A DNA stretch of 50,278 nucleotides from a virus. Lineage: Duplodnaviria > Heunggongvirae > Uroviricota > Caudoviricetes. The notes under the pieces were generated by a model, which ran no database searches, had not been told where the DNA came from, and worked only from the letters and a program-made list of their open reading frames with translations. This document shows, piece by piece, positions 9,407-42,835 of the stretch; positions within the stretch are counted from its first letter, which is position 1; the number at the start of each line of letters is the position of its first letter. Location of the stretch: positions 173,443-223,720 of the IMG/VR virus record IMGVR_UViG_2595698871_000001. One strand, 5' to 3'. Made by a program: the position numbers and the translations under genes.

Positions 9407-10015
9407 ATGTCGTTTCTGGACCGCATGCGCGAGTACATCACGGCCGACCTGAAGATCGTTGAGCACCTCACCCGCCGGTTCAGCCGGAAGCCGGAGGAGC
9501 CCGTGGCCGGGATCGCGCCCCAGCCGATGACGCAGGCGCCTCAGGTCGCCGGTGGTAGCAGCGGCGTGTCGCACTTCTACTACCCAGGCGTTGGCGGTGG
9601 GGGCTCTGTGAGCGCCAGCGGGGGCAGTGGAGGCGGGTCCGGCGGCACCCTGATCTACAACGGCACATCGGGGCAGGTTCTGGCCTACGACGGCCGGAAC
9701 GCGGCCTGGAGGCCCGCCCCGGTCCCCACGAAGCTGAAGGCCGACAAGCCGGCAGGGAGCTTCAAGGACCTCAACGCGACCGAGGAGGCGGTGGTCCACA
9801 ATGTCGCGCAGTACGAGGGGACCGAACTCGTGCGCGAGAAGGACGGGACGTTCTCCTATTGCCGCAAAGGCGTGGCCCTGGGCAAGGACCGCGTTCGATC
9901 CCGCACGGTCAACGTGTTGATCAAGAAGAAGTTTCTGGACGTGATCGAGTTCGGGGAGCGCGGCGAGGCCCTGGTCTGCGGGCTCGGCTCCAACATCAGG
10001 GTCCACGGCCGCTAG
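9407..10015 (+). CDS. hypothetical protein with Gly-rich linker and C-terminal family-A domain
   Basis: GGGGSVSASGGSGGGSGG; VRSRTVNVLIKKKFLDVIEFGERG aligns with the 27-31 kb paralogues. Confidence 0.65.
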   Translation: MSFLDRMREYITADLKIVEHLTRRFSRKPEEPVAGIAPQPMTQAPQVAGGSSGVSHFYYPGVGGGGSVSASGGSGGGSGGTLIYNGTSGQVLAYDGRNAAWRPAPVPTKLKADKPAGSFKDLNATEEAVVHNVAQYEGTELVREKDGTFSYCRKGVALGKDRVRSRTVNVLIKKKFLDVIEFGERGEALVCGLGSNIRVHGR

Positions 10016-19657: not shown

Positions 19658-19876
19658 ATGAGCTTCCACCGCAGCCCCCTTCCTGGCCCGCCGGAGCAGG
19701 CCGACGAGCGCTACAAGTTCATCGACATCGATGGCCGGCGCTACAAGGTCTACCGCTCGGGTCACGTCTCGGTCCTGATCCAGGGCACGGGCAAGCGGGC
19801 CGGCTACACCCGCTCGCTGACCCACAACAGCATCATCGCCGCGCGCGTGCGCTTCGCCTCGGGGTGGTTCGCATGA
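19658..19876 (+). CDS. small protein, paralogue of 14568-14798
   Basis: GRRYKVYRSGHV...VRFASGWFA. Confidence 0.7.
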   Translation: MSFHRSPLPGPPEQADERYKFIDIDGRRYKVYRSGHVSVLIQGTGKRAGYTRSLTHNSIIAARVRFASGWFA

Positions 19877-20265
19877 GCAAGCCGTCGATCGCGGTGGTGG
19901 GGTTCGTCTCCTCCACGCCCAACTTCTTCGAGATCGTCGACCTCAAGGTCGTCGACGACAGCCGCCGGCCCGGCGACGGGCGCATGTTCGCCCGCGACGC
20001 CGACACGGTGAACCCGTGCCCGCCCTGGGTCGAGTTCCAGATCGTGCTCGGCGTCTTCGACACCTACGAGCAGGCGGCGGCGGCGCGCGAGAAGTCCCGC
20101 GCCGACTACAAGGCCGCCGGCGCCGAGGTCGAGAAGACCAACGGCGAACTGATGCGCGCGACCCGCGCCTATGAAGCCGCCATCCTCGCCCACAACGAGG
20201 CCAAGACCGAGCAGCGGCGCGCCAGCCGGCAGGCCTTCCTCGGCACCCCCACCGACTACCGCTAG
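19873..20265 (+). CDS. hypothetical protein with C-terminal coiled coil
   Basis: ATGA overlap. Confidence 0.7.
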   Translation: MSKPSIAVVGFVSSTPNFFEIVDLKVVDDSRRPGDGRMFARDADTVNPCPPWVEFQIVLGVFDTYEQAAAAREKSRADYKAAGAEVEKTNGELMRATRAYEAAILAHNEAKTEQRRASRQAFLGTPTDYR

Positions 20266-20478: not shown

Positions 20479-20970
20479 ATGGCCCAGGAATACCAGACCT
20501 ACACCGTCAAGGGCTCCTGGCCCTTCCCGACCGACATGCTGCGCTACGACGACGCCAAGCCGGCGACCGTCTTTGCCAGCGAGACGATCAACCGCCTGTC
20601 GGGCGACTACGCCCCGTCGCGCGAGAGCATCCGCGACGAGGTCGAAATCAGGCTGATCCGGATCAAGCGCGGCCTGCCGGCGATCGACCGCTGGGAGTCG
20701 TTTGGCTGGAAGGTCGTCAACGGCGACGAGGACACCCAGTACGCGATCGCGGTGCGCAACCCGCCGCCGCTGGAACCCACGCCCTACGAGAAGCTGCGCG
20801 CGGCGGTCAAGGACGTGATCGCCGAACTCGACTACACGCCCAAGTACGTCTACGCCCGCGAGGACGACCTGGGCAAGCCCCTACCACCGCGCCTGATGTG
20901 CGCGCTGAACGAACTCACCAACACCTACAACGAAACTCCGGAGGCCCGACATGGCAATGACCACCCCTGA
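20479..20970 (+). CDS. conserved phage protein of unknown function
   Basis: FPTDMLRYD...P...RWESFGW motif. Confidence 0.7.
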   Translation: MAQEYQTYTVKGSWPFPTDMLRYDDAKPATVFASETINRLSGDYAPSRESIRDEVEIRLIRIKRGLPAIDRWESFGWKVVNGDEDTQYAIAVRNPPPLEPTPYEKLRAAVKDVIAELDYTPKYVYAREDDLGKPLPPRLMCALNELTNTYNETPEARHGNDHP

Positions 20971-21319
20971 CGGGCGCTACGCCATCGCCGGCTTCACCGG
21001 CTGGTCGCCCCAGCACTTCAAGGTCGTCGACCTGGACACCAAGTCCGTCAACGTCAGCGGCTGGGAAGACGAGGAGCAGGACTTCGCCCTGACGCTGGAC
21101 GGCGAGCGCTTCTACTACGACGTCATCAAGGCGCGCTTCGCGACCGCCGAGGACGCCGTGGGCAACCTCACCGCCGCCCAGGAAGCCTACGCGCTCCACG
21201 ACAAGGAGGTCGAGGCCTTGAGCGAGGAACTGGAAACCCTCAAGCGCAAGCTCGAACTGGCCGTCTCGGCGCGGGGCCGGGCCTACCGCAAGGCCATGAA
21301 GGGCGTCGACCTCGGATGA
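20951..21319 (+). CDS. hypothetical protein with C-terminal coiled coil
   Basis: GGAGG SD. Confidence 0.7.
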   Translation: MAMTTPDGRYAIAGFTGWSPQHFKVVDLDTKSVNVSGWEDEEQDFALTLDGERFYYDVIKARFATAEDAVGNLTAAQEAYALHDKEVEALSEELETLKRKLELAVSARGRAYRKAMKGVDLG

Positions 21320-23475: not shown

Positions 23476-23862
23476 ATGGCTACCCGCACCGCGTTCGACA
23501 TCCTCACCGACGCCGCCCACCTGATCGAGCGCAACGGCTGGGCTCAAGGCAAAGCAGTCCAGGCCGGCCCCGCCGCCGCCGACTGCCCAACCTGCGCCAA
23601 TCTGGCCCTGGGCGACGCCGCGCGCTTCCGCAGCGAGGTCCTCGGCGCCAACTACCACGCCTACCTGGAAGCCCAGGTGGCGCTCCTCAAGTACCTGAAG
23701 ATCGGCATCGCCCCGGCCCTGCTGAACCAGACCACCAAGGGCTCCCTGATCGTCGACTGGAACGACGCGCCCGAGCGCACGGCCGCCGAGGTCGTCGCCG
23801 CCCTGCGTGGCGCGGCCTACGCCCTGGTGGGTGACGGTCTGGTGGAGGCCAGCCTCGCATGA
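23476..23862 (+). CDS. DUF6197-like phage protein
   Basis: AAHLIERNGWAQG...WNDAPERTAAEV. Confidence 0.7.
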   Translation: MATRTAFDILTDAAHLIERNGWAQGKAVQAGPAAADCPTCANLALGDAARFRSEVLGANYHAYLEAQVALLKYLKIGIAPALLNQTTKGSLIVDWNDAPERTAAEVVAALRGAAYALVGDGLVEASLA

Positions 23863-24155
23863 TCTGGCAAGGAAGAGCCCTGCGTGTTTCGTTCGGCGAC
23901 AATCTCGTCGCCGAACTGACCAAGCTGCGCGTACCGCCTTCGACGTTCGGCCTGTCCGAGACGCCCTCGAAGGACCAGCCGCACATGAAGCTCTACGACG
24001 TCTGGGACGTCATGGGCGAGCGTCAATTCCGTGACCTGGGCGTGCCGGCCAATCCTCAGTACGGGCGCGATGTCAGCGGGATGTGGACGAACGGCGACAT
24101 GTGGATCACGCCGCAGGAAGCCGCCCAGATCATCGAGCAGAGGAAGCAATCGTGA
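23859..24155 (+). CDS. hypothetical protein
   Basis: ATGA overlap. Confidence 0.65.
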   Translation: MIWQGRALRVSFGDNLVAELTKLRVPPSTFGLSETPSKDQPHMKLYDVWDVMGERQFRDLGVPANPQYGRDVSGMWTNGDMWITPQEAAQIIEQRKQS

Positions 24156-24547
24156 CCGTCGCTCATGACCTCGCCCGCGCCTGCCGGCTGATCGAAGTCC
24201 ATGGCTGGGCGCAGGCCCGCCCGGCGGCCGAGCGCAATCCGACCGCCGCGCCGGACGGCACGATGGCCTACTGCACCACCACGGCGATCCACGAGTCCTG
24301 CAAGTTCGAGGGCCGTTCGGACGATCCGCGCTTCGTGATCGGCTACAGCAACCGCGTGCGCGACTGCTTCGCGGCCGTGCTCGACATCGTCAAGCCCGAG
24401 CGCGATCACCTCTTCGACCGCAGCAATCCGATGCTGATCTGGGCCTGGAACGATGCGCCCGAGCGCACCGCCGACGAGGTCATGGAGACGCTGCACCAAG
24501 CCGCCGTCACGATGGCCGACAAACTGGGACTGGGAGACGACGACTGA
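24152..24547 (+). CDS. DUF6197-like phage protein, paralogue of 23476-23862
   Basis: ACRLIEVHGWAQA...WNDAPERTADEV. Confidence 0.7.
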   Translation: MTVAHDLARACRLIEVHGWAQARPAAERNPTAAPDGTMAYCTTTAIHESCKFEGRSDDPRFVIGYSNRVRDCFAAVLDIVKPERDHLFDRSNPMLIWAWNDAPERTADEVMETLHQAAVTMADKLGLGDDD

Positions 24548-25203
24548 TGACCAGCTATGTGACCAACGATTCCGATGGGCGGGCCTACGTGGTCAGTTCG
24601 CGCGGGGTGATCCGCAACGGCACGACCGTCGTCATCGTCGCCAAGGACAACCGCGACATCGACGGACTGATCGGCGTGCTGGCGGTCGAGCGCGACCGCG
24701 AGACCGTCACGGTTCAGGCCGGATGCCGCCACATCCAGGTCGAGCCGGGCATGGTCAGCGAACTCAAGATGGGCCAGCGCATCGGCGATCCCGAGGCCAA
24801 CGAGCACCTCGCCCACATCGCCGAGATGGTCGGCGAGGGCGATGACGTGGGCGCGGCCTGGGAGAGCGTCCAGGCGATCATCACCGAGCGCGACACCCTC
24901 AAGGCCGCGATCGATACGGCCCTGGTCCAGATCAGCGGTGGTCTCTGCTACTTCACGGCCGACGCCAAGCACGCCCAGTTGAAGGACGCCGAGAAGACCC
25001 TGGAGCGGGCGCTGAACGGCGGGCAGGCCCCGATCGAAAAGCGCCTCTACGCCGAAGAACCGGGCGATGACTGGAGCCTGGAGCTTCACGTCTTCCACGC
25101 CGCCAACAACCCCAACCTGCCGGCCGCCACGCGGGAGCTTCTCAAGACCCTGTGGAAGGCCTATTGCGCCCTGGAACAACGCTGCGAAGGAGCCGCCACG
25201 TGA
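24547..25203 (+). CDS. hypothetical protein
   Basis: TGATG coupling. Confidence 0.7.
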   Translation: MTSYVTNDSDGRAYVVSSRGVIRNGTTVVIVAKDNRDIDGLIGVLAVERDRETVTVQAGCRHIQVEPGMVSELKMGQRIGDPEANEHLAHIAEMVGEGDDVGAAWESVQAIITERDTLKAAIDTALVQISGGLCYFTADAKHAQLKDAEKTLERALNGGQAPIEKRLYAEEPGDDWSLELHVFHAANNPNLPAATRELLKTLWKAYCALEQRCEGAAT

Positions 25204-25748
25204 ACATCCTGCAAGACCTCCTCGCCCAGCCCGAGCACATGACCGACGCCTATGCGTCCTGCATCTCGATGCGCATCGGCGACACCCTGGCCAGCCCCAA
25301 GCGCCAGGACCTCTTCGACCTCGCCACCACGCTGACGAGCATCTCCCACGCCATGCTGGCCCAGGCCCCGCAGGCGACCCGCGACGCCATCATCCACGAC
25401 AAGGCCGACATGGGCGATCCGATCATGGCCGCCTTCCGCCTGGGGCAACTCTCGATGGCCGGCGAGATCATGGGCTACGAGGCGACCCGCCGCGCGGACG
25501 ACGACATAATCGACGTGGTGAAGGCCAACCTCGGCGTGCTCTCCGACATCCGCGAGGGCCGCAACACGCCGTCGGAACTGGCGATGCAGTTTGGCATGAC
25601 CGGCAAGGAACTGAAGGTGCTGGTCCGGGTGCTGGAGCACAAGGGCCTCGTCGTTACCGTCACCAGCAGCACGCCGGGCGTCTACGAGGCGCGCCTGACG
25701 CCGCTCGCCCATTCGATCCTCGACATGCTGAAAGAGAAGGCCGCATGA
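25200..25748 (+). CDS. protein with C-terminal MarR-like winged HTH
   Basis: TPSELAMQFGMTGKELKVLVRVLEHKGLVV...RLTPLAHSIL. Confidence 0.75.
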   Translation: MNILQDLLAQPEHMTDAYASCISMRIGDTLASPKRQDLFDLATTLTSISHAMLAQAPQATRDAIIHDKADMGDPIMAAFRLGQLSMAGEIMGYEATRRADDDIIDVVKANLGVLSDIREGRNTPSELAMQFGMTGKELKVLVRVLEHKGLVVTVTSSTPGVYEARLTPLAHSILDMLKEKAA

Positions 25749-27261: not shown

Positions 27262-27675
27262 ATGCTGTCGCGTTCGGCGCGCCACGCGCAGATGACCGGC
27301 AAGACCGACACGCCCGACCTGATTGCGCGAGGCTACTGGCACAAGGGCCAGTGGGTGCGCAACACCATGGCCAGCCGGCTCAAGGCCTATATCGACCGCG
27401 TGCCCGACGTGCGGTTCTTCGAGGACGAGAAGGGCTACTATCCGGGTATCATGCTCGACCTGGGCGGCGATCGCTGGAGCATCACGCCGATCACCGGGCG
27501 GTTCAAGCGGGACGGCGAGGAAATCCCCGCCCCGCCGTTCTCCGACGTCTCGGCCCGGCAGTTCAGCCTCGCCCTGATGCGCAAGCTGGAGAAGGAGGGC
27601 GCGCTGGTCGCCGCCGTGCTCGACGTGCGCTATGACGGCAAGACGACTGTAGCGCGCTTTGATCCCGTGACCTGA
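27262..27675 (+). CDS. paralogue array, family A
   Basis: FSLALMRKLEKEGALVAAVLD. Confidence 0.65.
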   Translation: MLSRSARHAQMTGKTDTPDLIARGYWHKGQWVRNTMASRLKAYIDRVPDVRFFEDEKGYYPGIMLDLGGDRWSITPITGRFKRDGEEIPAPPFSDVSARQFSLALMRKLEKEGALVAAVLDVRYDGKTTVARFDPVT

Positions 27676-27959
27676 TGCCCAAGCTCTGGAACAAGCCCGT
27701 CCCGCTGAAGGCCCAGCCGATCCCCTACCAGATCGAGCGCTATCTGCTCAACCACCGCGACGTGCGGCTGGTGCGCGGACGCGACGGCTGGTTCCGACTC
27801 CAGGGCCGCACGGGGGTCAACCACTTCCGCAGCGTGCCAGGGTCGGGGCGCTACTCGGCGCGCACCGCCATGCTCTGCGTCGACAGCCTGTGTACGGTCG
27901 AGTCGTTCGACGAGTGCAATCGGCCCGACGTGATCGGCCTGCATCGGGACGTCATCTGA
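27675..27959 (+). CDS. paralogue array, family A
   Basis: YSARTAMLCVDSLCTVESFDECNRP. Confidence 0.65.
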   Translation: MPKLWNKPVPLKAQPIPYQIERYLLNHRDVRLVRGRDGWFRLQGRTGVNHFRSVPGSGRYSARTAMLCVDSLCTVESFDECNRPDVIGLHRDVI

Positions 27960-28324
27960 TGTGGTGCGATCCCAAGGTCCGCGCCCGGCGCCTGATGCTG
28001 CCGCGCAACGACGGCAAGGTGCGCTTCAACGGCACCGACTTCCCGTCGCTGATCTGCGCGGCGACGGCCTCGGTCCTGCTCGACAAGATGTGGAAGAGCT
28101 TTGACCAGCACCCGATCCTGCTGCGGCGGTCCGACGGCGATTTCGACCTCGACTGCGATCCCATCGGCCTGGAGGAGGACCGGCTGACGTTCGAGGCCGA
28201 CATCGTGATCTCCCGGCGCATCGCCATGAACTTGGTCGAACTGGGCTACCTACTCGTCGTGACGAGCACCGAGCGCGGCGCGCCCCAGCGCCTGGAAGTG
28301 GCCGACGTGCCGAGGCGGACCTGA
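27959..28324 (+). CDS. paralogue array, family A
   Basis: ISRRIAMNLVELGYLLVVTSTERGAP. Confidence 0.65.
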   Translation: MWCDPKVRARRLMLPRNDGKVRFNGTDFPSLICAATASVLLDKMWKSFDQHPILLRRSDGDFDLDCDPIGLEEDRLTFEADIVISRRIAMNLVELGYLLVVTSTERGAPQRLEVADVPRRT

Positions 28325-28605
28325 TGGCGAGGTCCCGTGTACGCGTCAGGATCACCCAGCTTCGCTACCTGGAGGTGCGTGCGAAACTCCAGCGCGGGCC
28401 GTGGAAGCATCTGATCCGCGCCTATCGCGGCTGGCGCTGCTACAATCCCGCCACCGGCACGACCGATATGGCCGAGCGCTACAGCGACGACACGGTGCGG
28501 CGCATGGTCGCAAGCGGGACGCTGGACGTCCACGAGTTCGACGAGGACGGCGTGGTCCAGGTCTATCGCCTGGGCAAGGCCTTCGACGGCTGGAGGTCGT
28601 CATGA
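28324..28605 (+). CDS. paralogue array, family A
   Basis: YSDDTVRRMVASGTLDVHEFDEDGVV. Confidence 0.7.
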   Translation: MARSRVRVRITQLRYLEVRAKLQRGPWKHLIRAYRGWRCYNPATGTTDMAERYSDDTVRRMVASGTLDVHEFDEDGVVQVYRLGKAFDGWRSS

Positions 28606-28955
28606 AGTACAAGTGGATGGCCAACCCCTACTACGCCCAGATAGGGTTCTCGCCCCATCAGGCGCGCTACTGGGACGTCGAGAAAGCCATGGTCCTCAAC
28701 CTGTGGGACGACATCGGCCGCGTCGGCGGGCTCGAAGACCCCAGCCACTGGAAGCTTGTCTGGAGGCCCTTGCAAGTGGGCCGCGAAGGGCGATATGTCC
28801 TGGTCACCGCCCAGGCTGGAATCGCCTACCCCATGGCGTACCCAAAGGGCTATCGCGGCGCGATCGTGGAGATCGCCGCCGATGAGGACTGCCGGCTGCG
28901 GCCGACGGTGCGGGACGAGACCGGGCGGATTCTGGAGTATCGGGGCGTCCAGTGA
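28602..28955 (+). CDS. paralogue array, divergent family A
   Basis: FSPHQARYWDVEKAMVLNLWDDIGRV. Confidence 0.6.
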   Translation: MKYKWMANPYYAQIGFSPHQARYWDVEKAMVLNLWDDIGRVGGLEDPSHWKLVWRPLQVGREGRYVLVTAQAGIAYPMAYPKGYRGAIVEIAADEDCRLRPTVRDETGRILEYRGVQ

Positions 28956-29575
28956 AGAGCGATTGGCGCGAGACCTTGGCGGCGGCGTTCGACCGGCCCC
29001 TCCCCGTGGAGGAGCCGGTGGCGGACCCCTATGCCTTCGATCCCAACGCGCCGCCGCTGATCCTCGACCTCACCCCGGACGAGAAGCTGTCGCTGACCGA
29101 GTACCGCTGGGCGGCGCTGGACGCGTCGGGCGCGGTCATGGGCGAATTCTGGGCGATCTCCCAGGCGGCCGAGGCGCTCGCCACCTTCCTCTACCCAGGC
29201 TTGGCCAGCTACGCGCGCGGCGGGCACACCGGCCGGCTCAAGGCCAACCGCCTGCGCCGGCTGAGCGAGGCCCAGAACTGGCGCTGCTGCTACTGCCATG
29301 GGCAGATGCGCATGCCCCACGACTGCGACGGCCCCAACGAGCCGGACATGGCGACGCTGGAGCACGTCACCCGCGTCACCGATGGCGGTGGTAGCACCTG
29401 GGACAACCTGATCGCCGCCTGCCAGACCTGCAACTCCCATCGCGGGAGCGTCATGCCCCTGAAGTGGTGGAAGCTGCGCCAGAAGCTCCTCCCCGATTGG
29501 CCGGCCTGCTCGCCGATCACCGACGCGGCCCGCTACGCCCTGCGCGGCTATGGGCTCTTGCGGCGCGGGTGGTGA
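28952..29575 (+). CDS. HNH endonuclease
   Basis: CCYC...ATLEHV...GG...NLIAACQTCNSHRG (CxxC-H-N-CxxCN). Confidence 0.88.
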   Translation: MKSDWRETLAAAFDRPLPVEEPVADPYAFDPNAPPLILDLTPDEKLSLTEYRWAALDASGAVMGEFWAISQAAEALATFLYPGLASYARGGHTGRLKANRLRRLSEAQNWRCCYCHGQMRMPHDCDGPNEPDMATLEHVTRVTDGGGSTWDNLIAACQTCNSHRGSVMPLKWWKLRQKLLPDWPACSPITDAARYALRGYGLLRRGW

Positions 29576-29621
29576 CAACCGTTTTTGGTTGTAAAGTGAG
29601 TTCACAACCTTTTTCGGTTGT
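29575..29621. promoter_or_regulatory. tandem palindromic operators ACAACC-N6-GGTTGT
   Basis: Copies at 29575-29592 and 29604-29621. Confidence 0.65.
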
Positions 29622-29694
29622 AGCGCGACTGTGTTGACGAGGTAACGAAAGCGGACTAAATGTAGGGCCTCGACGACAACGAAGGAGACCCCGC
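29620..29694 (+). promoter_or_regulatory. sigma70-type promoter, degenerate class B
   Basis: GTAGC-N6-GTGTTG; TTGACG 29634-29639, 17 bp, TAAATG; CGACGACAAC 29671-29680; GGAG. Confidence 0.7.
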
Positions 29695-29883
29695 ATGCCT
29701 AAGACCTGCGTCAAGATGGGCGATCTTGGCCTCGGCTGGTACGCCAGCAGCTACAGCGACGACTCGATGACCGTGCGCAATCCCGAGAAGGGCCTGCGCA
29801 TCGACCTGGAGTCCGAGAGCGTCGAGCGCCTGCGCCAGTTCTTCGCCCAGGCCAAGGCCGAAGCCGCCGGGCGCGCCGCATGA
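29695..29883 (+). CDS. hypothetical protein
   Basis: ATG after leader and SD. Confidence 0.7.
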   Translation: MPKTCVKMGDLGLGWYASSYSDDSMTVRNPEKGLRIDLESESVERLRQFFAQAKAEAAGRAA

Positions 29884-30089
29884 CGGCGATCGGCGCGGTC
29901 TTCACCTACTTCATGTTCTTCTGCTTCCTGCTGGTCCTGGCCTGCCTGATCGAGCGCGACGGCGACTACACGCCGCCCGACAAGGCCGAGAAGCTGTCGC
30001 TGCCGGTGATCGTCCTGCTGGCGATCGTCGCGGGCGCCGCCACCATGGGGCTGGCCTGGGCGATCCGCTATCATCGGGGCTTTTGGTGA
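29880..30089 (+). CDS. two-helix membrane protein
   Basis: Two hydrophobic segments. Confidence 0.65.
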   Translation: MTAIGAVFTYFMFFCFLLVLACLIERDGDYTPPDKAEKLSLPVIVLLAIVAGAATMGLAWAIRYHRGFW

Positions 30090-30550
30090 CCTCGCACGTC
30101 TCGCTCAAGAAGGTGACCACCGGCTTTGGCCTGACGCCCTCGGCGATCCCCGGTGTGACGATCGTCCTGCCGACGATTTCGCAGGTCATCCACCCGCGCA
30201 TCCAGGCCCGCATCGACAAGCTGACCCTCCAGTACAAGCAGGCCAAGGACCGCGCCCGCCGGCGCCAGAGCTTCAAGCTCCAGGCCCTGCTTGACGAGAC
30301 GCTGCCGGGCAAGGTGGTCTTCCACCGCACCGCCGGGGGTTTCTACAAGGCCGACTTCACCGGCACGGTGGAAGAATTTCAGGCCATGAGCCGGCTGCTG
30401 CTGCATCCGCTCTTCCTCCACGCCTGGGGCATCCGCTCGCTCAAGCCGCTGATCGCCGACGGCGCCCTGGTGGTCGAGGCGATGGACGAATACTGCCGGC
30501 CGTTGACCGTGCGCTTCGTCGACAACATCTGGACCTATGATGACGCGTAA
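30083..30550 (+). CDS. paralogue array, family A
   Basis: WGIRSLKPLIADGALVVEAMDEYCRP. Confidence 0.65.
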   Translation: MVTSHVSLKKVTTGFGLTPSAIPGVTIVLPTISQVIHPRIQARIDKLTLQYKQAKDRARRRQSFKLQALLDETLPGKVVFHRTAGGFYKADFTGTVEEFQAMSRLLLHPLFLHAWGIRSLKPLIADGALVVEAMDEYCRPLTVRFVDNIWTYDDA

Positions 30551-30920
30551 GCGCAAGTTGACGGTGATCAAGAAGGGCCGGCGCCTCACCGAAGTGGAGA
30601 GCGGGGTCACGGTCACCGAGGCCGAGGCCACGGTGATCGGCCTGCTCGCGCGCGGCACGCGCCTGAAGTTCGTCGACCTGGGCGACGACGGCTATTATCG
30701 GGTCCACTCGCTCTGCACGGCCGATCTCCAGAAGATGATGCAGGGCGAGCGATCCGGTGCCCGTGTCTACTGCTACACCACGCGCTTTGCCCGGCCCACG
30801 ATCGACAGCCTCGTCGCCACCGGCTGGCTGGCGCCGGTGCTCTCCGACGAGAACGGCCGGCCGCAGATGCTGGTCGCGCCGGGGCTGGCCGGCGCGTTTC
30901 TCCAGGAGATGTTCGCTTGA
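30537..30920 (+). CDS. paralogue array, family A
   Basis: FARPTIDSLVATGWLAPVLSDENGRP. Confidence 0.7.
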   Translation: MMTRKRKLTVIKKGRRLTEVESGVTVTEAEATVIGLLARGTRLKFVDLGDDGYYRVHSLCTADLQKMMQGERSGARVYCYTTRFARPTIDSLVATGWLAPVLSDENGRPQMLVAPGLAGAFLQEMFA

Positions 30921-31231
30921 AGCGACTCCAGCCTCACGTCCGTCTCGTCCTGCTGGTCCAGAAGATGGGCTACGCCACCACCGAGCCGCTGCTGCGTCGC
31001 GAGGCGCGCGGCTGGATCGTCACCTCGGCCGCCCGCGTGGTCGGGCGCTTCCGGGCCTATGACGCCGAGCCGGGCCTGACGTTTAACCCGCTGGAAGCCA
31101 CGGGCTTTGCGTTCTCCACGATCGAGCAGGCGATCCGGTACGAGCGGCTGAAGATCGAGCCCAGCGCCTGGAACCAGCACAAGCGGCCGATCGAGTACCG
31201 CATCACCGACTACTTTGGGTCCGGCCGATGA
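30917..31231 (+). CDS. paralogue array, family B
   Basis: FSTIEQAIR...WNQHKRPIEYRI. Confidence 0.65.
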   Translation: MKRLQPHVRLVLLVQKMGYATTEPLLRREARGWIVTSAARVVGRFRAYDAEPGLTFNPLEATGFAFSTIEQAIRYERLKIEPSAWNQHKRPIEYRITDYFGSGR

Positions 31232-31560
31232 GCAGCGCCATCCACAAGCTTCGCTCCCTGTTCGACCTGATCCAGAAGAGCTACCCGACGGCCGAGATCA
31301 GGCTGGAGCATCAGGGCGGCGACGCCTACCGCGTGAAGATCGTCGAGTATGACGGCGCCGCGCGCGTCGGCTTCTACAGCGACCGCCTCGGCCAAGCCTT
31401 CACCCGCGAACTCGTCACGCCCGGCTTGCAGCGCCAGGGCGCGCGCTATCGCATCGGCACGGTGCGCGAGGCGCTCAAGCGCTGGCCCACCGCCGTGCTC
31501 ACGCCGACGGCCTGGAACGAGTCGCTCAAGCCCATCGACTACCGGCTGCTGCTCGCATGA
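31228..31560 (+). CDS. paralogue array, family B
   Basis: IGTVREALK...WNESLKPIDYRL. Confidence 0.65.
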   Translation: MSSAIHKLRSLFDLIQKSYPTAEIRLEHQGGDAYRVKIVEYDGAARVGFYSDRLGQAFTRELVTPGLQRQGARYRIGTVREALKRWPTAVLTPTAWNESLKPIDYRLLLA

Positions 31561-31889
31561 GATCGGCCGGCGCCCAGTTCCTCGACGTGATCAACGCGAT
31601 CGGGCTCTACCCGTCTGAGACGGCCAAGCTGCTCCACGTCGAGGGCGACCGCTTCGTCCTGGAGGTCCCGCGCCGCGAGCGCTGGACGATCGGGGGCGAC
31701 TACGGCTATGTCGCCCTGAACCCGCAGGGGCGTGTCGTGTACGCGGCACACCCTGCGCTGGCCAAGCCCTGGCGCCGGCGCACGTTCGAAGAGGCGGTGC
31801 GCACCTCGCCCGGCTGGCTGGCCCTGGAGGTCACCGCGCGCGATCAGAACCTCACCCCGGTCGGCTACACGTTGAGGGCGGTGCGATGA
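31557..31889 (+). CDS. paralogue array, family B
   Basis: RRTFEEAVR...RDQNLTPVGYTL. Confidence 0.65.
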   Translation: MRSAGAQFLDVINAIGLYPSETAKLLHVEGDRFVLEVPRRERWTIGGDYGYVALNPQGRVVYAAHPALAKPWRRRTFEEAVRTSPGWLALEVTARDQNLTPVGYTLRAVR

Positions 31890-32299
31890 AGCGCAAGATC
31901 AAGGTCCCCAGGTACACCCAATTCGAGCGCGCCTATCGGGCGCTCCTGATCCTGTCCCAGGACTATGCCGACCAGCCCTGTGACGGGTTCCCCGGCCGCG
32001 TCACGCTGGAGCGCCGCGAGTTCGGGCGCTGGGTGTTCCTTTGGGACAACCTGCCGATGTGGGTCAACAACGACGCGGGCATGGTGCTGGTCGCGCGCGC
32101 CGAATTCGGCAAGCCGATCGCCCACTTCACCACCAAGACCGTGCGGACCATGATCCTGGCCTCGCGCGGTACGGTGCGCGCCTACGACGGCGACGCCTAT
32201 TCCACGCGCCAGCCGCTGGGGCTGCTGCTGCCCGAGGCCTGGGACCAACAGGCGCGCGTGATCTGCTATCGGGTCTTGCCCCTCTCGGTGACTCTCTAG
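31886..32299 (+). CDS. hypothetical protein, possible family A member
   Basis: FTTKTVRTMI partial match. Confidence 0.6.
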   Translation: MKRKIKVPRYTQFERAYRALLILSQDYADQPCDGFPGRVTLERREFGRWVFLWDNLPMWVNNDAGMVLVARAEFGKPIAHFTTKTVRTMILASRGTVRAYDGDAYSTRQPLGLLLPEAWDQQARVICYRVLPLSVTL

Positions 32300-32846: not shown

Positions 32847-33965
32847 ATGCCCAAGGGTCCCGTGCTCGACAAGTTCGTCAAGGGCAAGCGCTACAGCCAG
32901 CGGGAGTTCCTGCGCCTCGTCCTGGACACCGTCACGGCCATCACCGCCCTGCCGACCTACGAGCGGGGATGCCGCGCCCGCGACGTCGCCGAGCGCTTTG
33001 GTGATCCGGCCTGGGGCGAGCGCGATAATCTCCAGATCATCGCCGTCACCCTCAACAACCTGAAGAACCGCAACTACGTCCGCTCCCCCGAGCGCGGCCT
33101 GTTCCTGGTCAACGAGGGCAAGGCCAGCCTGGGCCTGGACGTGCAGGAGCAGATCGAGATCGCCGTCGCCGACGTGCTCACCGCGCAGGGCGGCTACGGC
33201 CGGCGCAAGGTGATCGACGTCGCCATGGGGGCCGAGCGGTGGTCCAAGGAGCAGGTGACGATCAACCGCGTCATCAACCAGAACGACCGCATCCGCCGCG
33301 ACTACAAGGGCATGGCCTACGCGCTCTACAACCTCGCGCCCGAGGAACTCGCCCTGCTGCCCCAGCAGGGTCGGTGGCTGCATCTCCAGTCGGCCGCCGG
33401 CCTGCGGATGATCACCGGCAAGCCCACCCACGACATCTACAATCTGATCGAGAAGGCCGCCCGCCAGCAGTACCGCAACATCGGGGCGATCTTCCGGCTG
33501 GTGCTCGACCACATCGACGAGGAGTTCGTCGACGGCCTGGAGAACGACGACGACCTGCACGACGCCATGAAGGCCTACACGCGCGCCTTCTCCGACATCG
33601 ACTCGGCCGCGAAGCGGCTTATCGAGGAGCGCTACGGCCCGGCCGGCGACAAGTTCACCGCCCTCCAGCAGAAGGGCTGGTCGCTCGACGAGATCGACAC
33701 CGCCCGGCGCGACGCCCTGCTCGACTACGATCGCGACGCCCCGCTGCGGCTGATCGACCTCTTCTGTGAGGGGGACGCCCATGCGCACGAGCGCGCGCCG
33801 ATCGCCTTCTATGAGGCCTTCGCCAAATGGGCCGGGCTGGACGCGCCGGCGCTCAGCCGGGGCATCATCATGGCCGACCTGTCGCGGATCAAGCGGATGA
33901 GCAAGCTGGACGCCCTCGAAGACGGGCCGCTGCCTGGGTATGAGGACGCCGCGCCGGCCGAGTAG
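32847..33965 (+). CDS. putative DNA-binding protein with tandem winged-helix-like N-terminal domains (candidate initiator/regulator)
   Basis: GAGGGG SD then ATG 32847; RARDVAERF...AVTLNNLKNRNYVRSPERGLFLV; second helical repeat ADVLTAQGG...TINRVI. Confidence 0.6.
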   Translation: MPKGPVLDKFVKGKRYSQREFLRLVLDTVTAITALPTYERGCRARDVAERFGDPAWGERDNLQIIAVTLNNLKNRNYVRSPERGLFLVNEGKASLGLDVQEQIEIAVADVLTAQGGYGRRKVIDVAMGAERWSKEQVTINRVINQNDRIRRDYKGMAYALYNLAPEELALLPQQGRWLHLQSAAGLRMITGKPTHDIYNLIEKAARQQYRNIGAIFRLVLDHIDEEFVDGLENDDDLHDAMKAYTRAFSDIDSAAKRLIEERYGPAGDKFTALQQKGWSLDEIDTARRDALLDYDRDAPLRLIDLFCEGDAHAHERAPIAFYEAFAKWAGLDAPALSRGIIMADLSRIKRMSKLDALEDGPLPGYEDAAPAE

Positions 33966-38003: not shown

Positions 38004-40736
38004 ATGACCTTCTATCCCATGGAGGACCGGGCCAAGGCTCGCTCCGTCGTCACCAACCTGCTGGACCTCCAGCGCGAAGCCGTCAAGGTGGGCCGTCAAG
38101 GGCTGATCCTGCCGCCCGAGCGCAAGCAGTTGATCACCCAGTTGACCGAGACCGAGGATCACACCCGCTGGGTGGACCTCTTGGGTCAGTTCGCCGATCG
38201 CGTCCAGACCGATCACCTCTCGCGCCTGAAGCCGATCGCCAAGGACGACTTCAACGCCTTCTGCGAGTACGTCAACCCCGACGAGCCGCCGGCCTCCAAG
38301 TGGCACGTCTTCCTGACCGGCACGCTCCAGGAGATCGAGAACAACCCCGAGCTTGAGCGCTTCGTGCTCAACTGCCCGCCGGGCCACGCCAAGCCGCTGG
38401 ACGTCGACACCGAAGTGCTGATGGCTGATGGCGCCTGGAAGCGTCTGGGCGACATCCAGGTGGGCGACTACGTGGTGGGCGAGAGCGGCGCGCGCTGCAA
38501 GGTCACCGCCGTCCATGAGCAGGGCGACCTCGACACCCTGAAGATCACCACCGCCCACGGCCGGCAGATCATCGCCGCGCCCGACCACTCGTTCCGGGTC
38601 GGTGACGGCTGGAAGCCGGCCGGCAAGCTGCGTCCGGGTGACGCCCTGTCCGTCGTCGGCGCCGCCAACCTCAACTACGACGCCAGCGGCAAGTCGATCG
38701 ACCACTTCGAGCTTGCCGCCTACCTCCAGGCCAAGGGCGGGCGCTCCTACTTCCACCGCGTCCACAAGAGCGGGCCGAAGACCTACCGCAACGTCTATCT
38801 GTGGACGTCCGACCACCGCGAGGCCAGCCAGATCAGCACGTGCCTCAAGCGCATGGGCGTGGCCTTCAAGGGGCGGCTGGCCAAGACCGAGAAGGTCTGG
38901 AAGATGCGCCTCTCGACCGAGTGGGGCGACGCCCTGGCCGAGGAGTACGGCCTGGACGCCAAGATCGACGCGCGTCGTGTTCCGGCCTTTGTCACGAAAG
39001 GCGACGAGGAGCAGATCGGCCGCTACCTGTCGACCCTGACCTCGCTGGCCGGCGAAGCTCCCGAGCGCTACACCATCCCGCGTCTGGTGCTCTACTTCAA
39101 GAACCCCGACTTCGCCACCGACGTCCAGCGCCTGTTCGCCGCCGTCGGCGTCAACGCGCGCATCGAGCCGCGCAAGACCGGTCGCACCCGGCTGCACATC
39201 TCCGGCGCCGATCTCGAAGCCTACTTCGCCGCCGGCCTGACCTACACCGGCCCCAACGCCGACAAGCTGCCGGCCAAGCGCGCGGCGTTCCCGACCGCGC
39301 CCTCGACGCTGGCCGATCACGTCACCTGGATCGAGCCGCATGGGGTGCGCCCCTGCCGCTGCCTGACGGTCGAGAACGAGCACACCTTCATCGCCCAGGG
39401 CGTGGTGGTCCACAACTCGACCTACGCCTCGCGCCTGTTCGTGGCGTGGCGCCTGGGCCGCGATCCGCGCCAGAAGATCATCGGCGGCGGCCACTCCCAA
39501 CGCTTCGTCGAAAACGAGTTCAGCGGCAAGATTCGCAACCTCGTGCGGACGCCCCAGTTCAAGGACGTCTTCCCCGGCGTGGTCATCGACCATGCCACCT
39601 CGGCTAAGGACATGTGGGCGATCGCCGGGCACGGCGGGCAGTATGCCGCCAAGGGCGCCGGTCAGGCCATCCACGGTCTGCGCGCCAACTTCGTCTGCGT
39701 CGATGACCCCTATCCGTCGATCCAGAAGGCCGAGAGCGGGGCCTACCGCGAGGAAGTCCGCACGTGGTTCTTCGGTGACGTTGGCTCGCGTCTGTTGCCG
39801 CTCGCTAAAGTATTCCTCATCATGACGCGCTTTCATGAGGAAGATTTGACGGGTACGATCCTCAAGTACAACCAAGACGCACTTGTGGAGTCTGACCGTT
39901 ACCACATCGTCGAAGCGCCCGCTCTGTGTTACGACCCCGAGAACGACGTCCTCGGCCGCGCTCTGGGCGAAGTTTTGTGGGACTACTATGACTTGCATTA
40001 CTTCAAACGGAAGCGCTCCGAGTGGAAGTACCAAAGATTTGCTTTGGTTTATCAACAACTTGCGGACGCCGCCTCGGACACGTCGATCGCGTCCAAGTTC
40101 CAGACCTACCAGCACCTGCCGCACCTGGACCCGAAGGTCCTCAAGGCGCGCATGGACGCGGGGCATGTTGACGATCGCGGCCGGCCGATCCCGGACCGCA
40201 AGGAGCACTTCCGCCGCATCGTGACCTCGGTCGACGCGGCCCAGAAAAAGGGCGCGCGCAACGACTACACGGTCGTCCAGGTGTGGGGCGAGACCCACGA
40301 TCGCAAGCACTACCTGATCTACCAGGAGCGCAAGAAGGTCGAGATCAACGACCTGATCGAGATGGTCGAGCGCATCTCCAAGCGCTTCGACGTCGACTCT
40401 ATCCTGGTCGAGGACAAGGGCAACGGCACCGCCTACATCCAGGCGCGGGGCCAGACCGACAGCCAGCGCCGGCTCGCGCCGGCCCCGATCGAGGCGATCC
40501 AGGTCCCCAGCACCTACTCCAAGGAGTTCCGCTTCAACGAGGTCATCCCGATGATCGAGGCGCAAGAGGTCTACCTGCCCGACAAGGCGCCGTGGCTGGA
40601 CCTGTTCATCCGCGAAGTCGGGCAGTTCCCCGAAGGCGCCCACGATGACCAAGTCGACGCCATGACGCAGTACCTCCGCTGGGCCAAGTCCAAGCGCTCG
40701 CGGTTCGGCGCGCGCAAGGTCGGCTCGATGGGCTGA
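38004..40736 (+). CDS. terL: terminase large subunit, intein-containing (569 aa after splicing)
   Basis: Walker A PPGHAK|S, GGQY..KG, VCVDDP Walker B, IMTRFHEEDL, nuclease SVDAA...DYT, HDDQVDA. Confidence 0.95.
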   Translation: MTFYPMEDRAKARSVVTNLLDLQREAVKVGRQGLILPPERKQLITQLTETEDHTRWVDLLGQFADRVQTDHLSRLKPIAKDDFNAFCEYVNPDEPPASKWHVFLTGTLQEIENNPELERFVLNCPPGHAKPLDVDTEVLMADGAWKRLGDIQVGDYVVGESGARCKVTAVHEQGDLDTLKITTAHGRQIIAAPDHSFRVGDGWKPAGKLRPGDALSVVGAANLNYDASGKSIDHFELAAYLQAKGGRSYFHRVHKSGPKTYRNVYLWTSDHREASQISTCLKRMGVAFKGRLAKTEKVWKMRLSTEWGDALAEEYGLDAKIDARRVPAFVTKGDEEQIGRYLSTLTSLAGEAPERYTIPRLVLYFKNPDFATDVQRLFAAVGVNARIEPRKTGRTRLHISGADLEAYFAAGLTYTGPNADKLPAKRAAFPTAPSTLADHVTWIEPHGVRPCRCLTVENEHTFIAQGVVVHNSTYASRLFVAWRLGRDPRQKIIGGGHSQRFVENEFSGKIRNLVRTPQFKDVFPGVVIDHATSAKDMWAIAGHGGQYAAKGAGQAIHGLRANFVCVDDPYPSIQKAESGAYREEVRTWFFGDVGSRLLPLAKVFLIMTRFHEEDLTGTILKYNQDALVESDRYHIVEAPALCYDPENDVLGRALGEVLWDYYDLHYFKRKRSEWKYQRFALVYQQLADAASDTSIASKFQTYQHLPHLDPKVLKARMDAGHVDDRGRPIPDRKEHFRRIVTSVDAAQKKGARNDYTVVQVWGETHDRKHYLIYQERKKVEINDLIEMVERISKRFDVDSILVEDKGNGTAYIQARGQTDSQRRLAPAPIEAIQVPSTYSKEFRFNEVIPMIEAQEVYLPDKAPWLDLFIREVGQFPEGAHDDQVDAMTQYLRWAKSKRSRFGARKVGSMG
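38394..39416 (+). mobile_element. intein, 341 aa, Pro1, with degenerate LAGLIDADG domain
   Basis: Block A PLDVDTEVLMADG, block B AAPDHSF, block F CRCLTV, C-terminal HN|S; inserted between K and S of the P-loop. Confidence 0.92.
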
Positions 40737-40762
40737 TTAACCATCTTCGTTCACCCTGTCCG

Positions 40763-40799
40763 GGCCTGTTAACCTTAACACACCGATGGTTAACAGGCC
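40763..40799. repeat. 12-bp inverted repeat containing GTTAAC
   Basis: GGCCTGTTAACC 40763-40774 / GGTTAACAGGCC 40788-40799. Confidence 0.8.
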
Positions 40800-40927
40800 A
40801 GGGACCCATCGAAATTAACCCTTGGGGACCCAGGGGAATCGTCAGCCGGGGACCCTGGGAAATTAACCCTTGGGGACCCACCAAAATCAACCTTCGGGGA
40901 CCCTAGCGAATCGTGGCTCGGGGACCC
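40800..40927 (+). repeat. GGGGACCC array with exact 24-bp period
   Basis: Cores start at 40800 (AGGGACCC), 40824, 40848, 40872, 40896, 40920. Confidence 0.92.
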
Positions 40928-40948
40928 TGGCAAATCAAGGAGCCGGCG

Positions 40949-41182
40949 ATGGCCGAACTCATGAGCCTGCTGTTCAACATCGCCCCGTTCCTGCTGCTGG
41001 CGATCGTCGTCTACCACGTCCTGGAGGCCGTCTGGGCGATCAGCCTGTGGGTCTACGGCCTGCGCACCCTGTGGAAGCTCCACCGCGACGACGTCAGCGA
41101 GGCCCTGACCCTGGAGCGGGCCTTGAGCCCCTTCTCCAGCCCTGGCCGCGACCGCAACGGCAATCCCGTCCCGCCGGCCTGA
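40949..41182 (+). CDS. small membrane protein
   Basis: AAGGAG SD; LLFNIAPFLLLAIVVYHVLEAVWAISLWV. Confidence 0.7.
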   Translation: MAELMSLLFNIAPFLLLAIVVYHVLEAVWAISLWVYGLRTLWKLHRDDVSEALTLERALSPFSSPGRDRNGNPVPPA

Positions 41183-41189
41183 CGACCTA

Positions 41190-41215
41190 TGTCACGGACT
41201 GTAGGTTTCATGACA
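41190..41215. promoter_or_regulatory. 26-bp palindromic site TGTCA..-N12-..TGACA (copy 1)
   Basis: TGTCACG-gactgtaggttt-CATGACA. Confidence 0.55.
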
Positions 41216-41254
41216 AGGTGGATTATTCCACAACGAAATCAAAGGCTTATCGCC

Positions 41255-41503
41255 ATGTCGATCCGCACCTTCTTCCACGACCTCGCCGTCCGTTTCGTCG
41301 TTTTGGGGTGGATTTTTGCCCAAAAACCCCAGAAATGGGCTCCAAAAGGGCATAATTTTCAGCCCATCCCGCCGGCCCAGGTCGAGCGGCAGGACCTCCG
41401 GGGGCGCGTGCTTCTCCTGAGGAGCTTCGGCGTCCTCGCCGCCGCATGCACAACCATGGGCCTGTGTCAATACCTGCTCTGGCGCCGCGCGCCCATGTCA
41501 TAG
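41255..41503 (+). CDS. small putative membrane protein
   Basis: Hydrophobic N- and C-terminal segments; start uncertain. Confidence 0.55.
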   Translation: MSIRTFFHDLAVRFVVLGWIFAQKPQKWAPKGHNFQPIPPAQVERQDLRGRVLLLRSFGVLAAACTTMGLCQYLLWRRAPMS

Positions 41504-41521
41504 ACCATCGCTTTCGTGACA
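41496..41521. promoter_or_regulatory. 26-bp palindromic site (copy 2)
   Basis: TGTCATA-gaccatcgcttt-CGTGACA. Confidence 0.55.
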
Positions 41522-41550
41522 GCTTCACGATCCCGTTACCGGACAACCCC

Positions 41551-41649
41551 ATGCCCCACCTCGGTTTCTGGCTCTCCGCCGCCTGCATCGCCCTGGCCTG
41601 GGCGATCTGGGCGCTACGGCGGCTGATCGCCCCACCACCGCCCGCCTGA
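41551..41649 (+). CDS. 32-aa membrane peptide
   Basis: MPHLGFWLSAACIALAWAIWALRRLIAPPPPA; weak SD. Confidence 0.45.
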   Translation: MPHLGFWLSAACIALAWAIWALRRLIAPPPPA

Positions 41650-41695
41650 CCCCGGCCGCGCGCGCCCGCGCCGCCGGTATCGCCCGGCCAAAGCG

Positions 41696-41743
41696 TCATA
41701 TATGAGCCCTTAACCCCTCTAAGGTCGCATATATGAGACCTTA
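41696..41743. repeat. paired CATATATG palindromes
   Basis: TCATATATGA 41696-41705; TAAGGTC-g-CATATATG-a-GACCTTA 41720-41743. Confidence 0.75.
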
Positions 41744-41783
41744 CGGCCCTCTTGACGCCCTCGTGTTCCTCTGAACGCGGGGG

Positions 41784-41910
41784 CGTTTTGACGTCGGCGC
41801 ATTTCCAACTCAACGCGCGGCCGTTTTGACGTCCGAGCGTTTTGACGCGAGCGCATTTTCGATTCGACGGGCGAGCGTTTTGACGTCCGACCGTTTTTCA
41901 ACTTGACGTC
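41784..41910 (+). repeat. CGTTTTGACGTC direct repeats
   Basis: Copies at 41784, 41822, 41838 (variant), 41876 and partial TTGACGTC 41903. Confidence 0.85.
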
Positions 41911-41930
41911 GTTTCATTTACCAAGAGCGC

Positions 41931-42121
41931 CTTAAGGTTAACCGCCGAGCCTGGGAAGGGTTAAGGCCCGTTAACCATGTTTGTTAACCCTCAGGCCGTT
42001 AACCTATCACTCGTTAAGGTTAACGCGCCCGCCTCATTAACCCTTAGCGTGTTAAGGTTAACGCCCCGGCCCAGGCCGTTAAGGTTAACAAACATGGTTA
42101 ACGGGCCAGACCGGCGTTAAC
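41931..42121. repeat. dense TTAA/GTTAAC cluster with 25-bp perfect inverted repeat
   Basis: 15 TTAA in about 190 bp; IR arms 41965-41989 and 42083-42107. Confidence 0.88.
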
Positions 42122-42215
42122 CCTAACGGCCGGCGCCCAGCCGCGCCCAGGCGCTCGCCGGCGAGCCCAGGCCCTACCGGGTATGACCTGCCGGCCATAC
42201 CCGCCAGAGTGCGCC

Positions 42216-42473
42216 TCACGCGTCCGCGTCGGGCGACGCCGCCGCCCCGTAGTCGTGATCATTCCAGAGTATGCCCAGAATTTCGTCAGGCCCGAACGAC
42301 GGGAGAAGGGTTTGCAGGGCGTCGTATGTCTCGCGGAAGGCGCTCGCGTCGTCGTCCTGCATCCAGACCGACTCCTTGCCGGTCTTGTCGCGGAACGTGT
42401 ACGCCGCGCCGTTCCCGTAGCTGTCGAGGGCGAAGCGTTCGCCCTCCGATATCCGAAGCGGTCCTGAGTACAT
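42216..42473 (-). CDS. hypothetical protein (only minus-strand gene)
   Basis: MYSGPLRISEGERFALDSYG...; GGAG SD on minus strand; own CtrA-box promoter. Confidence 0.7.
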   Translation of the reverse strand: MYSGPLRISEGERFALDSYGNGAAYTFRDKTGKESVWMQDDDASAFRETYDALQTLLPSFGPDEILGILWNDHDYGAAASPDADA

Positions 42474-42530
42474 GGGGCGTTCTCCAAGGGCGCGGGATGC
42501 GCCCGACCCGTGCAATCTGACAGCCAATTC

Positions 42531-42545
42531 TTAACAAAAGGTTAC
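42531..42545 (-). promoter_or_regulatory. CtrA box promoter (leftward)
   Basis: Minus strand GTAA-ccttttg-TTAA-G. Confidence 0.75.
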
Positions 42546-42564
42546 CGTGAGATTTTTCTTGCCG

Positions 42565-42596
42565 TTTACTTTTTGTTAAGAATTGGGGTCTAGTGT
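42565..42596 (+). promoter_or_regulatory. CtrA box promoter
   Basis: TTTA-ctttttg-TTAA 42565-42579, then CTAGTGT. Confidence 0.8.
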
Positions 42597-42646
42597 CCCT
42601 CTTGTCGGGGCCACCCCCGGCGCTCTTTGACATTGTGAGGCAACCC

Positions 42647-42835
42647 ATGATTCCCCAAGAAATCCTGAATCCGCGCGAGCACTGGACTCCCGTCGCCTCG
42701 CGCGAGGAAGCCGACAAGATCGCCGCGCGCTGCACCGAAGGCGACCCCGTCGGCCGCTACTATGTCGAGTCCAAGGGCGCCGGCTACGCTGTCGCCTATG
42801 ACGACGAGACGGGCCAATTCGTCGCCTACCTCTAA
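42647..42835 (+). CDS. hypothetical protein
   Basis: GAGG SD then ATG 42647. Confidence 0.7.
   Translation: MIPQEILNPREHWTPVASREEADKIAARCTEGDPVGRYYVESKGAGYAVAYDDETGQFVAYL

Follow-up and report, generated by a model that had tools for sequence, protein, structure and literature searches.

Twelve diverged paralogues, most of them in one tandem array, share an unnamed and apparently winged-helix-like domain in a phiCbK-like Caulobacter phage

The DNA analysed here, a stretch of 50,278 nucleotides (nt) that we call the window, is the right end (173443–223720) of the 223.7 kb genome of a phiCbK-like Caulobacter phage with direct terminal repeats. We found that 12 of its genes are paralogues that diverged long ago and have in common a domain of about 80 residues, which carries no name in any database and whose predicted models look winged-helix-like. 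Eleven of the 12 lie in one tightly packed array, and the remaining member, at 9407, is an outlier. We refer to the array members within 27262–30920 as A1–A7, and to the four genes after A7 (30917, 31228, 31557 and 31886, together spanning 30917–32299) as subfamily B, or B1–B4. A first-pass annotation of the window had proposed a hidden family of at least eight highly diverged paralogues with a common fold and variable surfaces, recognised by a shared block of about 26 amino acids (aa). Hidden Markov model (HMM) searches, reversed controls, held-out detections and structural models bear out the family, its common predicted fold and its variable surface positions, and bring the membership to 12; the homology, however, is not limited to the block but spans about 80 residues, taking in a helix at the N terminus and a hairpin whose Gly is invariant. 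We regard homology and a shared fold of the 12 members as very probable, and give a probability of about 0.5 to the further explanation, taken as a whole, that they are diversified winged-helix-like nucleic-acid binders. The members are listed below with their isoelectric points (pI) and the profile–profile (hhalign) or HMM link by which each was placed.

9407..10015, + strand: outlier protein, 202 aa; the domain is its C-terminal ~75 residues (~9785–10012), after a Gly-rich N-terminal part
27262..27675, + strand: A1, 137 aa, pI 9.5; first hairpin and second helix separated by a long insertion
27675..27959, + strand: A2, 94 aa, pI 9.8; joins the A4/A7 HMM, with 77 residues aligned
27959..28324, + strand: A3, 121 aa, pI 5.8, the sole acidic member; recruited in HMM iterations 3–4
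28324..28605, + strand: A4, 93 aa, pI 10.2, the minimal domain, modelled; hhalign with A7, P = 3.2e-6
28602..28955, + strand: A5, 117 aa, pI 8.7, groups with subfamily B by sequence; hhalign with B1, P = 5.4e-6
30083..30550, + strand: A6, 155 aa, pI 9.7, a bridge between A and B; hhalign with the A core, P = 2.3e-4
30537..30920, + strand: A7, 127 aa, pI 9.5; reciprocal HMM detection with A4
30917..31231, + strand: B1, 104 aa, pI 10.25; hhalign with B5, P = 1e-6, and with B2, P = 2e-5
31228..31560, + strand: B2, 110 aa, pI 9.9, modelled for subfamily B; AlphaFold2 model and BFVD matches
31557..31889, + strand: B3, 110 aa, pI 9.85; hhalign with B2, P = 3.3e-5 over 86 columns
31886..32299, + strand: B4, 137 aa, pI 9.8; hhalign of B1 with B4, P = 5.3e-5, and of B4 with B7, P = 1.1e-4 over 103 columns

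Homology among the A members was established with profiles. Using hhalign on five-sequence orthologue alignments, with reversed profiles as controls, we found significant similarity for A4–A7, for A5–B1 and for many pairs within subfamily B (P = 1e-8 to 1e-4). When HMMs were iterated over 764 open reading frames (ORFs), made up of the whole genome and the loci of four relatives and including ~340 antisense decoys, A4 and A7 detected each other in the first round and A2 and A3 followed, with zero decoys entering; A1 (E = 0.08) and A6 were the top sub-threshold hits of the same iteration. The merged A2/A3/A4/A7 profile matched A1 (P = 3e-4, 57 columns; reversed control P = 0.35) and A6 over 54 columns, and these matches covered both halves of the domain, with reversed targets at P ≥ 0.2. 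The A-family HMM found held-out orthologues from phage BL57 at about E = 1e-13, the BL57 A3 orthologue among them at E = 1e-13, and reached B1 of phage CcrBL10 at E = 0.004. An HMM built without 9407 and run against all 1,611 ORFs of the genome returned 9407 as its sole non-training match (E = 8.5e-4; next E = 0.78), in register with the family and including the invariant Gly; the first-pass annotation had listed it as an outlier. A MAFFT alignment of the domain-trimmed sequences of six A subfamilies was collinear over ~90 columns, and the Gly of the first hairpin is almost invariant in it.

Thus A1–A4, A6, A7 and 9407 are joined by iterative HMM, profile–profile, whole-genome and exhaustive searches, and subfamily B together with A5 by profile and fold. 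Family A matched family B (with A5) at P = 1.6e-4 over the helix-plus-hairpin block (reversed 0.64). A5 could be aligned to B members over its whole length, and the merged A-core profile matched it at P = 0.012 over residues 83–112. The first-pass annotation was right to count A5 as a member but had misplaced its block at FSPHQA...WDDIGR, a stretch that the Karma orthologue lacks; the real block is C-terminal, around YRGAIVEIAADEDCRLRPTVRDETGRILEY. Similarly, the gene at 31886, B4, had been taken as a partial member and does belong, but as a full member of the sister subfamily with 30917, 31228 and 31557.

The conserved pattern of the domain is a helix; a hairpin h-h-R-x-x-(D/G)-G-x-(Y/W/F); a variable loop; a short second helix R-[YF]-S-x-x-T-[IV]-x-x-L-[IV]-x-x-G; and a second hairpin L-x-V-x3-D-E-x-G-R-P. 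The block first noticed by eye, which corresponds to the last two of these elements, is conserved among the orthologues of A1–A4, A6 and A7, and subfamily B carries the C-terminal signature L-x-P-x-A-W-D-x3-(R/K)-P-(I/V)-x-Y. The hydrophobic core and both turns are kept, and the paralogues differ at exposed positions of the second helix and in the loop. A conserved scaffold with a variable surface suggests diversified target recognition.

Standard searches do not see this family. Pairwise BLAST of all window proteins gave no significant match among A members (best E 0.28–0.36); across genomes, BLAST matched A2 to the Karma orthologue of A4 (E = 6.7e-4). Pfam returned no match at E ≤ 0.1 for A1–A7 and B4 or at E ≤ 1 for 9407, B2 and the external members described below, B1 and B3 being outside the scan, and a PDB sequence search with the A-family profile gave nothing below E = 0.64. 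Each member matched its own separate PHROG, all of unknown function, at E = 1e-45 to 1e-90 (12425, 12756, 12372, 12992, 12253, 12758, 12010 and 12721); these are orthologue groups, not a superfamily, and they leave the genes as unrelated hypotheticals in public annotation, as had been anticipated. Remote clustering at the PHROG level can therefore miss families that synteny-guided profile building recovers.

The absence of BLAST matches and the separation by PHROGs would also be expected if there were no real family, and the motif seen by eye had arisen by chance among small arginine-rich proteins of a high-GC genome. To this can be added the result of a control in which 90 single-seed HMM iterations, one per window gene, were run at an inclusion E of 0.02: decoys entered about six of the 90 runs, and any lone marginal link has to be weighed accordingly. 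In the same control, however, the array emerged as the largest paralogue network in the window. 9407 recruited A4, A6 and A7; A2 recruited A3, A4 and A7; A4 and A7 were reciprocal; B1 and B3 recruited A6 plus other B members (for B3, B1 and B2); and B4 recruited B1 and B2. The reciprocal and held-out detections, the reversed controls, the independent models and the external members carrying both motifs contradict a chance origin, which we consider to have almost no probability.

We then turned to the predicted fold. The AlphaFold2 model of A4, made from a 19-row family alignment (predicted local distance difference test 82.6, predicted template modelling (TM) score 0.70), has a helix at 3–24, strands at 29–33 and 36–41, a helix at 55–64 and strands at 67–72 and 78–83. 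That of B2, made from a 15-row alignment of B and A5 (74.1 and 0.68, respectively), has the same order of elements with one additional strand: a helix at 4–18, strands at 23–30, 33–41 and 44–51, a helix at 76–84 and strands at 89–96 and 102–109. In both models the last helix and the last two strands form a recognition-like helix followed by a β-hairpin wing. Their best neighbours by structure are winged-helix domains, in keeping with the earlier impression of a helix plus wing.

Searches of BFVD, in which entries were recognised as family members from the name of the phage and the length of the protein rather than from sequence, returned other family members as the top matches. For the A4 model these were orthologues of A4, A2, A7, A6 and B1 (E = 1.5e-6 to 0.06), including the model of the A2 orthologue of phage Swift (E = 8e-4, root-mean-square deviation (rmsd) 2.1, 63 columns) and A7 orthologues at E = 1.8e-3 and 4e-3. 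For the B2 model they were orthologues of B2, A6, B1, A7 and A2, and A6 orthologue models were matched by both queries. Since the BFVD models come from other workers, who used alignments of their own, they are independent, and, given assignment by name and length, these matches appear to be the strongest independent evidence for a common fold of A and B. The ESM Atlas models of A4 and A7 also had common neighbours, with proteins containing DUF6456 first.

The predicted domain differs from the known folds that it most resembles. Compared with winged-helix domains (the DNA-binding domains of PadR, MarR and IclR, the winged helices of ESCRT-II and cullin, and ADAR1 Z), it has a hairpin and a loop for helix 2 and no helix-turn-helix, no Pfam or PDB sequence match, and a Z score below 8. 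The N-terminal (N2) domain of the GspE/PilT/BfpD secretion ATPases is also set apart by a low Z score and a lack of sequence similarity, and no ATPase domain is attached here. We therefore describe the fold as winged-helix-like, and the unannotated family as a probable variant of the winged-helix theme whose diverged copies stand in tandem in a model lineage of phages.

On this fold, the second helix would be placed like a recognition helix and the last hairpin like a wing, and the array may encode small proteins that bind nucleic acids. Each paralogue would have its own DNA (or RNA) target and would influence transcription or replication, of phage or host, in the course of infection. Nucleic-acid binding seems the most likely function because of the placement of helix and wing together with the high pI, and the suggestion also draws on the neighbours in fold, a helix-plus-wing pattern like that of MarR, the basic character of the proteins, and a core that is kept while exposed positions vary. 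As a step in its own right we hold it tentatively, at somewhat less than even odds, and binding of host proteins is a close rival. The pI lies between 9.5 and 10.25 in 10 of the 12 members, so the description of the family as small basic proteins is largely correct; A5 is at 8.7, and A3, at 5.8, departs from it.

Several observations weigh against nucleic-acid binding by a winged helix. Neither model has a canonical helix-turn-helix, a hairpin (in A4, strands 29–33 and 36–41) plus a loop standing in place of helix 2. Foldseek found nothing significant in the PDB (E ≤ 0.001), and the AlphaFold2 models of A4 and B2 alone are not independent evidence of a shared fold because their alignments mix paralogues, a restriction that does not apply to the BFVD and Atlas models. 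Among the polar residues, the best conserved include a D-E pair in the turn of the wing; such acidity is unusual for a wing that contacts DNA, and A3 is acidic as a whole.

The lack of a true helix-turn-helix fits as well with protein-binding effectors of host takeover or counter-defence, in which a conserved scaffold would present variable surfaces, each for a different host protein such as RNA polymerase. DUF6456 is the mark of GafA, an activator of gene transfer agents (GTAs), and of its relatives. GafA binds the omega subunit of RNA polymerase through its central region (PMC9638019; discussed in PMC11150451), and its Caulobacter homologue GafZ is an anti-terminator (PMC11150451). DUF6456-containing, GafA/GafZ-like proteins are the top Atlas neighbours of two independently modelled members, with TM scores by query of 0.63 (A4) and 0.46 (A7) over ~80 residues, and in BFVD the A4 model matched the GafA-like gp38 of Roseobacter phage RDJL Phi 1 (TM by query 0.59, rmsd 3.0, 78 columns). 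Both groups occur in alphaproteobacteria and their phages. The confinement of the family to one phage lineage and its fast divergence (~40% identity to Karma versus 93% for the flanking gene 26934), which is typical of host-interaction genes, point in the same direction.

This structural likeness is not matched by sequence or profile similarity. A search of the whole genome with the Pfam model PF20057 found nothing at E ≤ 10, although RDJL Phi 1 gp38 is recovered in the same way at E = 1e-12, and comparison of the family with gp38 by HMM and hhalign was insignificant (P ≥ 0.1 for the family profiles). A word search for gp38 relatives returned gp38 itself only, and a scan of genome contigs returned none. 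The DUF6456 match of gp38, at 230–293, is helical by eye and seems unlikely to be the part that resembles A4; apart from that match, an unannotated middle region of gp38 is alpha/beta by eye. The GafA/GafZ-like regulators are multidomain proteins of 250–310 aa with flanking helix-turn-helix domains, compared with the single-domain array proteins of 90–155 aa, and TM scores of ~0.5–0.6 over 80 residues are weak. We therefore treat the connection to DUF6456 and GafA as a possible lead at the level of fold only. Binding of host proteins in general we rate as a real but less favoured possibility, at about one chance in three. A more specific version, in which the array would be a phage-borne radiation of the GafA/GafZ domain that docks onto host RNA polymerase (for example, omega) or its factors and reprograms Caulobacter transcription, is unlikely; if true, it would define a new class of small RNA polymerase-targeting phage proteins and link phiCbK-like phages to the GTA regulatory toolkit.

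A language-model search listed a YjhX_toxin cluster for A4 (0.87) and A7 (0.85), and the proteins are small and basic, as would suit growth-inhibiting, toxin-like proteins (of the YjhX/TopAI type, for example) that shut off host functions. Scores below 0.9 are leads only according to the tool, Pfam PF09857 gave no match at E ≤ 0.1, and no antitoxin-like partner was identified. We consider a toxin function very improbable, and nucleic-acid binding by a diversified winged-helix-like domain remains our preferred reading.

The history of the array was reconstructed from its relatives. A1–A7 are one-to-one syntenic in Karma, phiCbK, Ccr5 and CcrBL10; in BL57, A2 is missing and A1 is truncated. Only subfamily B varies in copy number, with two copies in Karma and Ccr5, four here and in CcrBL10, and four to five in BL57. 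Like the tandem multigene families of large phages and poxvirus-type gene accordions, the array consists of head-to-tail, translationally coupled paralogues in a non-structural region, with subfamily B copy number differing between relatives. It differs in that its copies are less than ~30% identical and mostly one-to-one, with no near-identical repeats or recent amplification; identities between subfamilies were 13–32% in alignments. Since paralogues this diverged are mostly one-to-one orthologous across genera, the duplications are old, and the family is old and diversified rather than the gene accordion that had been suggested.

Ratios of nonsynonymous to synonymous substitution (dN/dS) against CcrBL10 were 0.17–0.48 for array genes still 74–91% identical, compared with 0.15–0.20 for upstream flanking genes. 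Ratios against Karma, and that of B1 against CcrBL10 (too diverged), were saturated or biased by extreme GC content at third codon positions (GC3) and were not interpreted. Judged by these values, the array genes are constrained coding genes under purifying selection, and the positive selection raised as a possibility earlier finds no support. Members are 29–64% identical to Karma, against 93% for the adjacent gene 26934, and the 37% identity of B1 to the CcrBL10 copy stands against 83–87% for its neighbours on either side; because of these contrasts, we consider the array block to be fast-evolving or exchanged in mosaic fashion. A large gene downstream, 32847–33965, is 38% identical to CcrBL10 and 57% to Karma. 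Mosaic replacement may have occurred at 30917–31231 and 32847–33965.

Some copies in the relatives look like decaying members. The BL57 A1 orthologue (locus 4812–5141) stops short of the C-terminal block, and one 114-aa B copy (locus 7937–8281) lacks the C-terminal hairpin. CcrBL10 gp112 (locus 4328–4609) is annotated at 47 aa, but the full 92-aa A4 frame is intact upstream and the annotated start is likely wrong.

An IMG/VR search for related loci returned CcrBL10 and Karma only, and word-indexed searches with A7 and subfamily B returned phiCbK-like phages only. An exhaustive HMMER scan of 1.84 billion representative proteins gave 27 matches at E ≤ 1e-3, a third of which (9) were new proteins of 89–156 aa on short Logan contigs; these nine carry both the R-x-x-D-G-x-Y-R hairpin and the R-[YF]-S-x-x-T-[IV]-x-x-L-[IV] ... 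D-E-x-G-R-P-L block. The Brevundimonas phages Bajun and Bambus had two matches each, of which a local HMM search confirmed one and two, respectively. A filtered search of Colossus, CcrBL9 and CcrSC was negative at E ≤ 0.01, which is not proof of absence. In a 266-aa Bambus protein (locus 1486–2286) the domain is C-terminal, as in the 202-aa 9407 protein, and since it forms the end of longer proteins in both cases, the domain is a portable module and not solely a stand-alone protein. One further scan match, a 302-aa metagenomic protein, has about six tandem repeats of ~24 residues (KMIESGAFVVDE..LRWS) that match the helix-plus-hairpin part of the HMM; its likeness to the family is probably convergent and repeat-driven.

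About 12 'hypothetical' genes of a model Caulobacter phage group can thus be brought together in a single domain family that has no name but a clear signature. The syntenic genes in phiCbK are gp300–gp309, and one structure, for example of the 88–93 aa A4/gp303, would annotate the whole set and give a handle on a large dark-matter block of a well-studied phage–host system.

Within the array, stop and start codons overlap throughout by 1 nt (TGATG), 4 nt (ATGA/GTGA), 7 nt or 14 nt, confirming the translational coupling noted in the first-pass annotation. The interval 27262–30920, which had been presented as an array of members, does contain A1–A7 but also three non-member genes and an intergenic break:

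28952..29575, + strand: HNH endonuclease (Pfam PF01844, E = 1e-7), non-member inside the array, at the same position in all relatives
29576..29694, + strand: intergenic break of 119 nt, read directly from the sequence
29695..30089, + strand: two small non-member ORFs (62 aa and 69 aa) at the start of the second unit, with no HMM match to A or B

The 69-aa ORF is hydrophobic, judged by eye to be membrane-spanning, and is not present in CcrBL10 or Karma. The break contains two ACAACC-N6-GGTTGT palindromes, T-rich at their centres, and after them TTGACG-N17-TAAATG and an AGGAG ahead of the next ATG; a strict sigma-70 consensus scan called no promoter there, and in Karma a terminator is annotated at the matching position. 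The palindromes could be operators or small terminator hairpins. Because this gap carries palindromes, a promoter-like site and a ribosome-binding site, and because of the Karma terminator, the array is probably two transcription units, one comprising A1–A5 and the HNH gene and the other the 62-aa ORF, the membrane ORF, A6, A7 and B1–B4. RNA-seq data for phiCbK are given in Table S3 of PMC10688885.

The nearest relative of the genome is CcrBL10 (Poindextervirus), with 87% identity across 93% of the region by Megablast; DNA-level matches of other phiCbK-like phages were confined to the first 261 bases of the window. All credible window genes are on the + strand with GC3 of 0.8–0.97, and the array ORFs are present at the coordinates listed above with GC3 of 0.86–0.94. 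The array lies within a run of small genes, with two genes that are MarR-like by eye on one side and resolvase and terminase genes on the other. The gene order A1–A5, HNH, A6, A7 and then two to five more small genes is common to CcrBL10, Karma, phiCbK, Ccr5 and BL57. The first MarR-like gene, 25200–25748, occupies a place annotated as 'HTH DNA binding protein' in CcrBL10 and Karma, and it pairs with 10611–11117, also MarR-like by eye.

Other paralogues were found in the window. The genes at 3936–4607, 19864–20265 and 20951–21319 form a three-gene set (BLAST E = 8e-4 to 0.013, with reciprocal HMM recruitment), and 23476–23862 and 24152–24547 form a pair (E = 1e-8). From 40913 onward each ORF has an identical twin at genome positions ~950–10000, and the end of terL matches genome position 18; window positions ~40700–50278 are the direct terminal repeat of ~10 kb that phiCbK-like phages are known to have.

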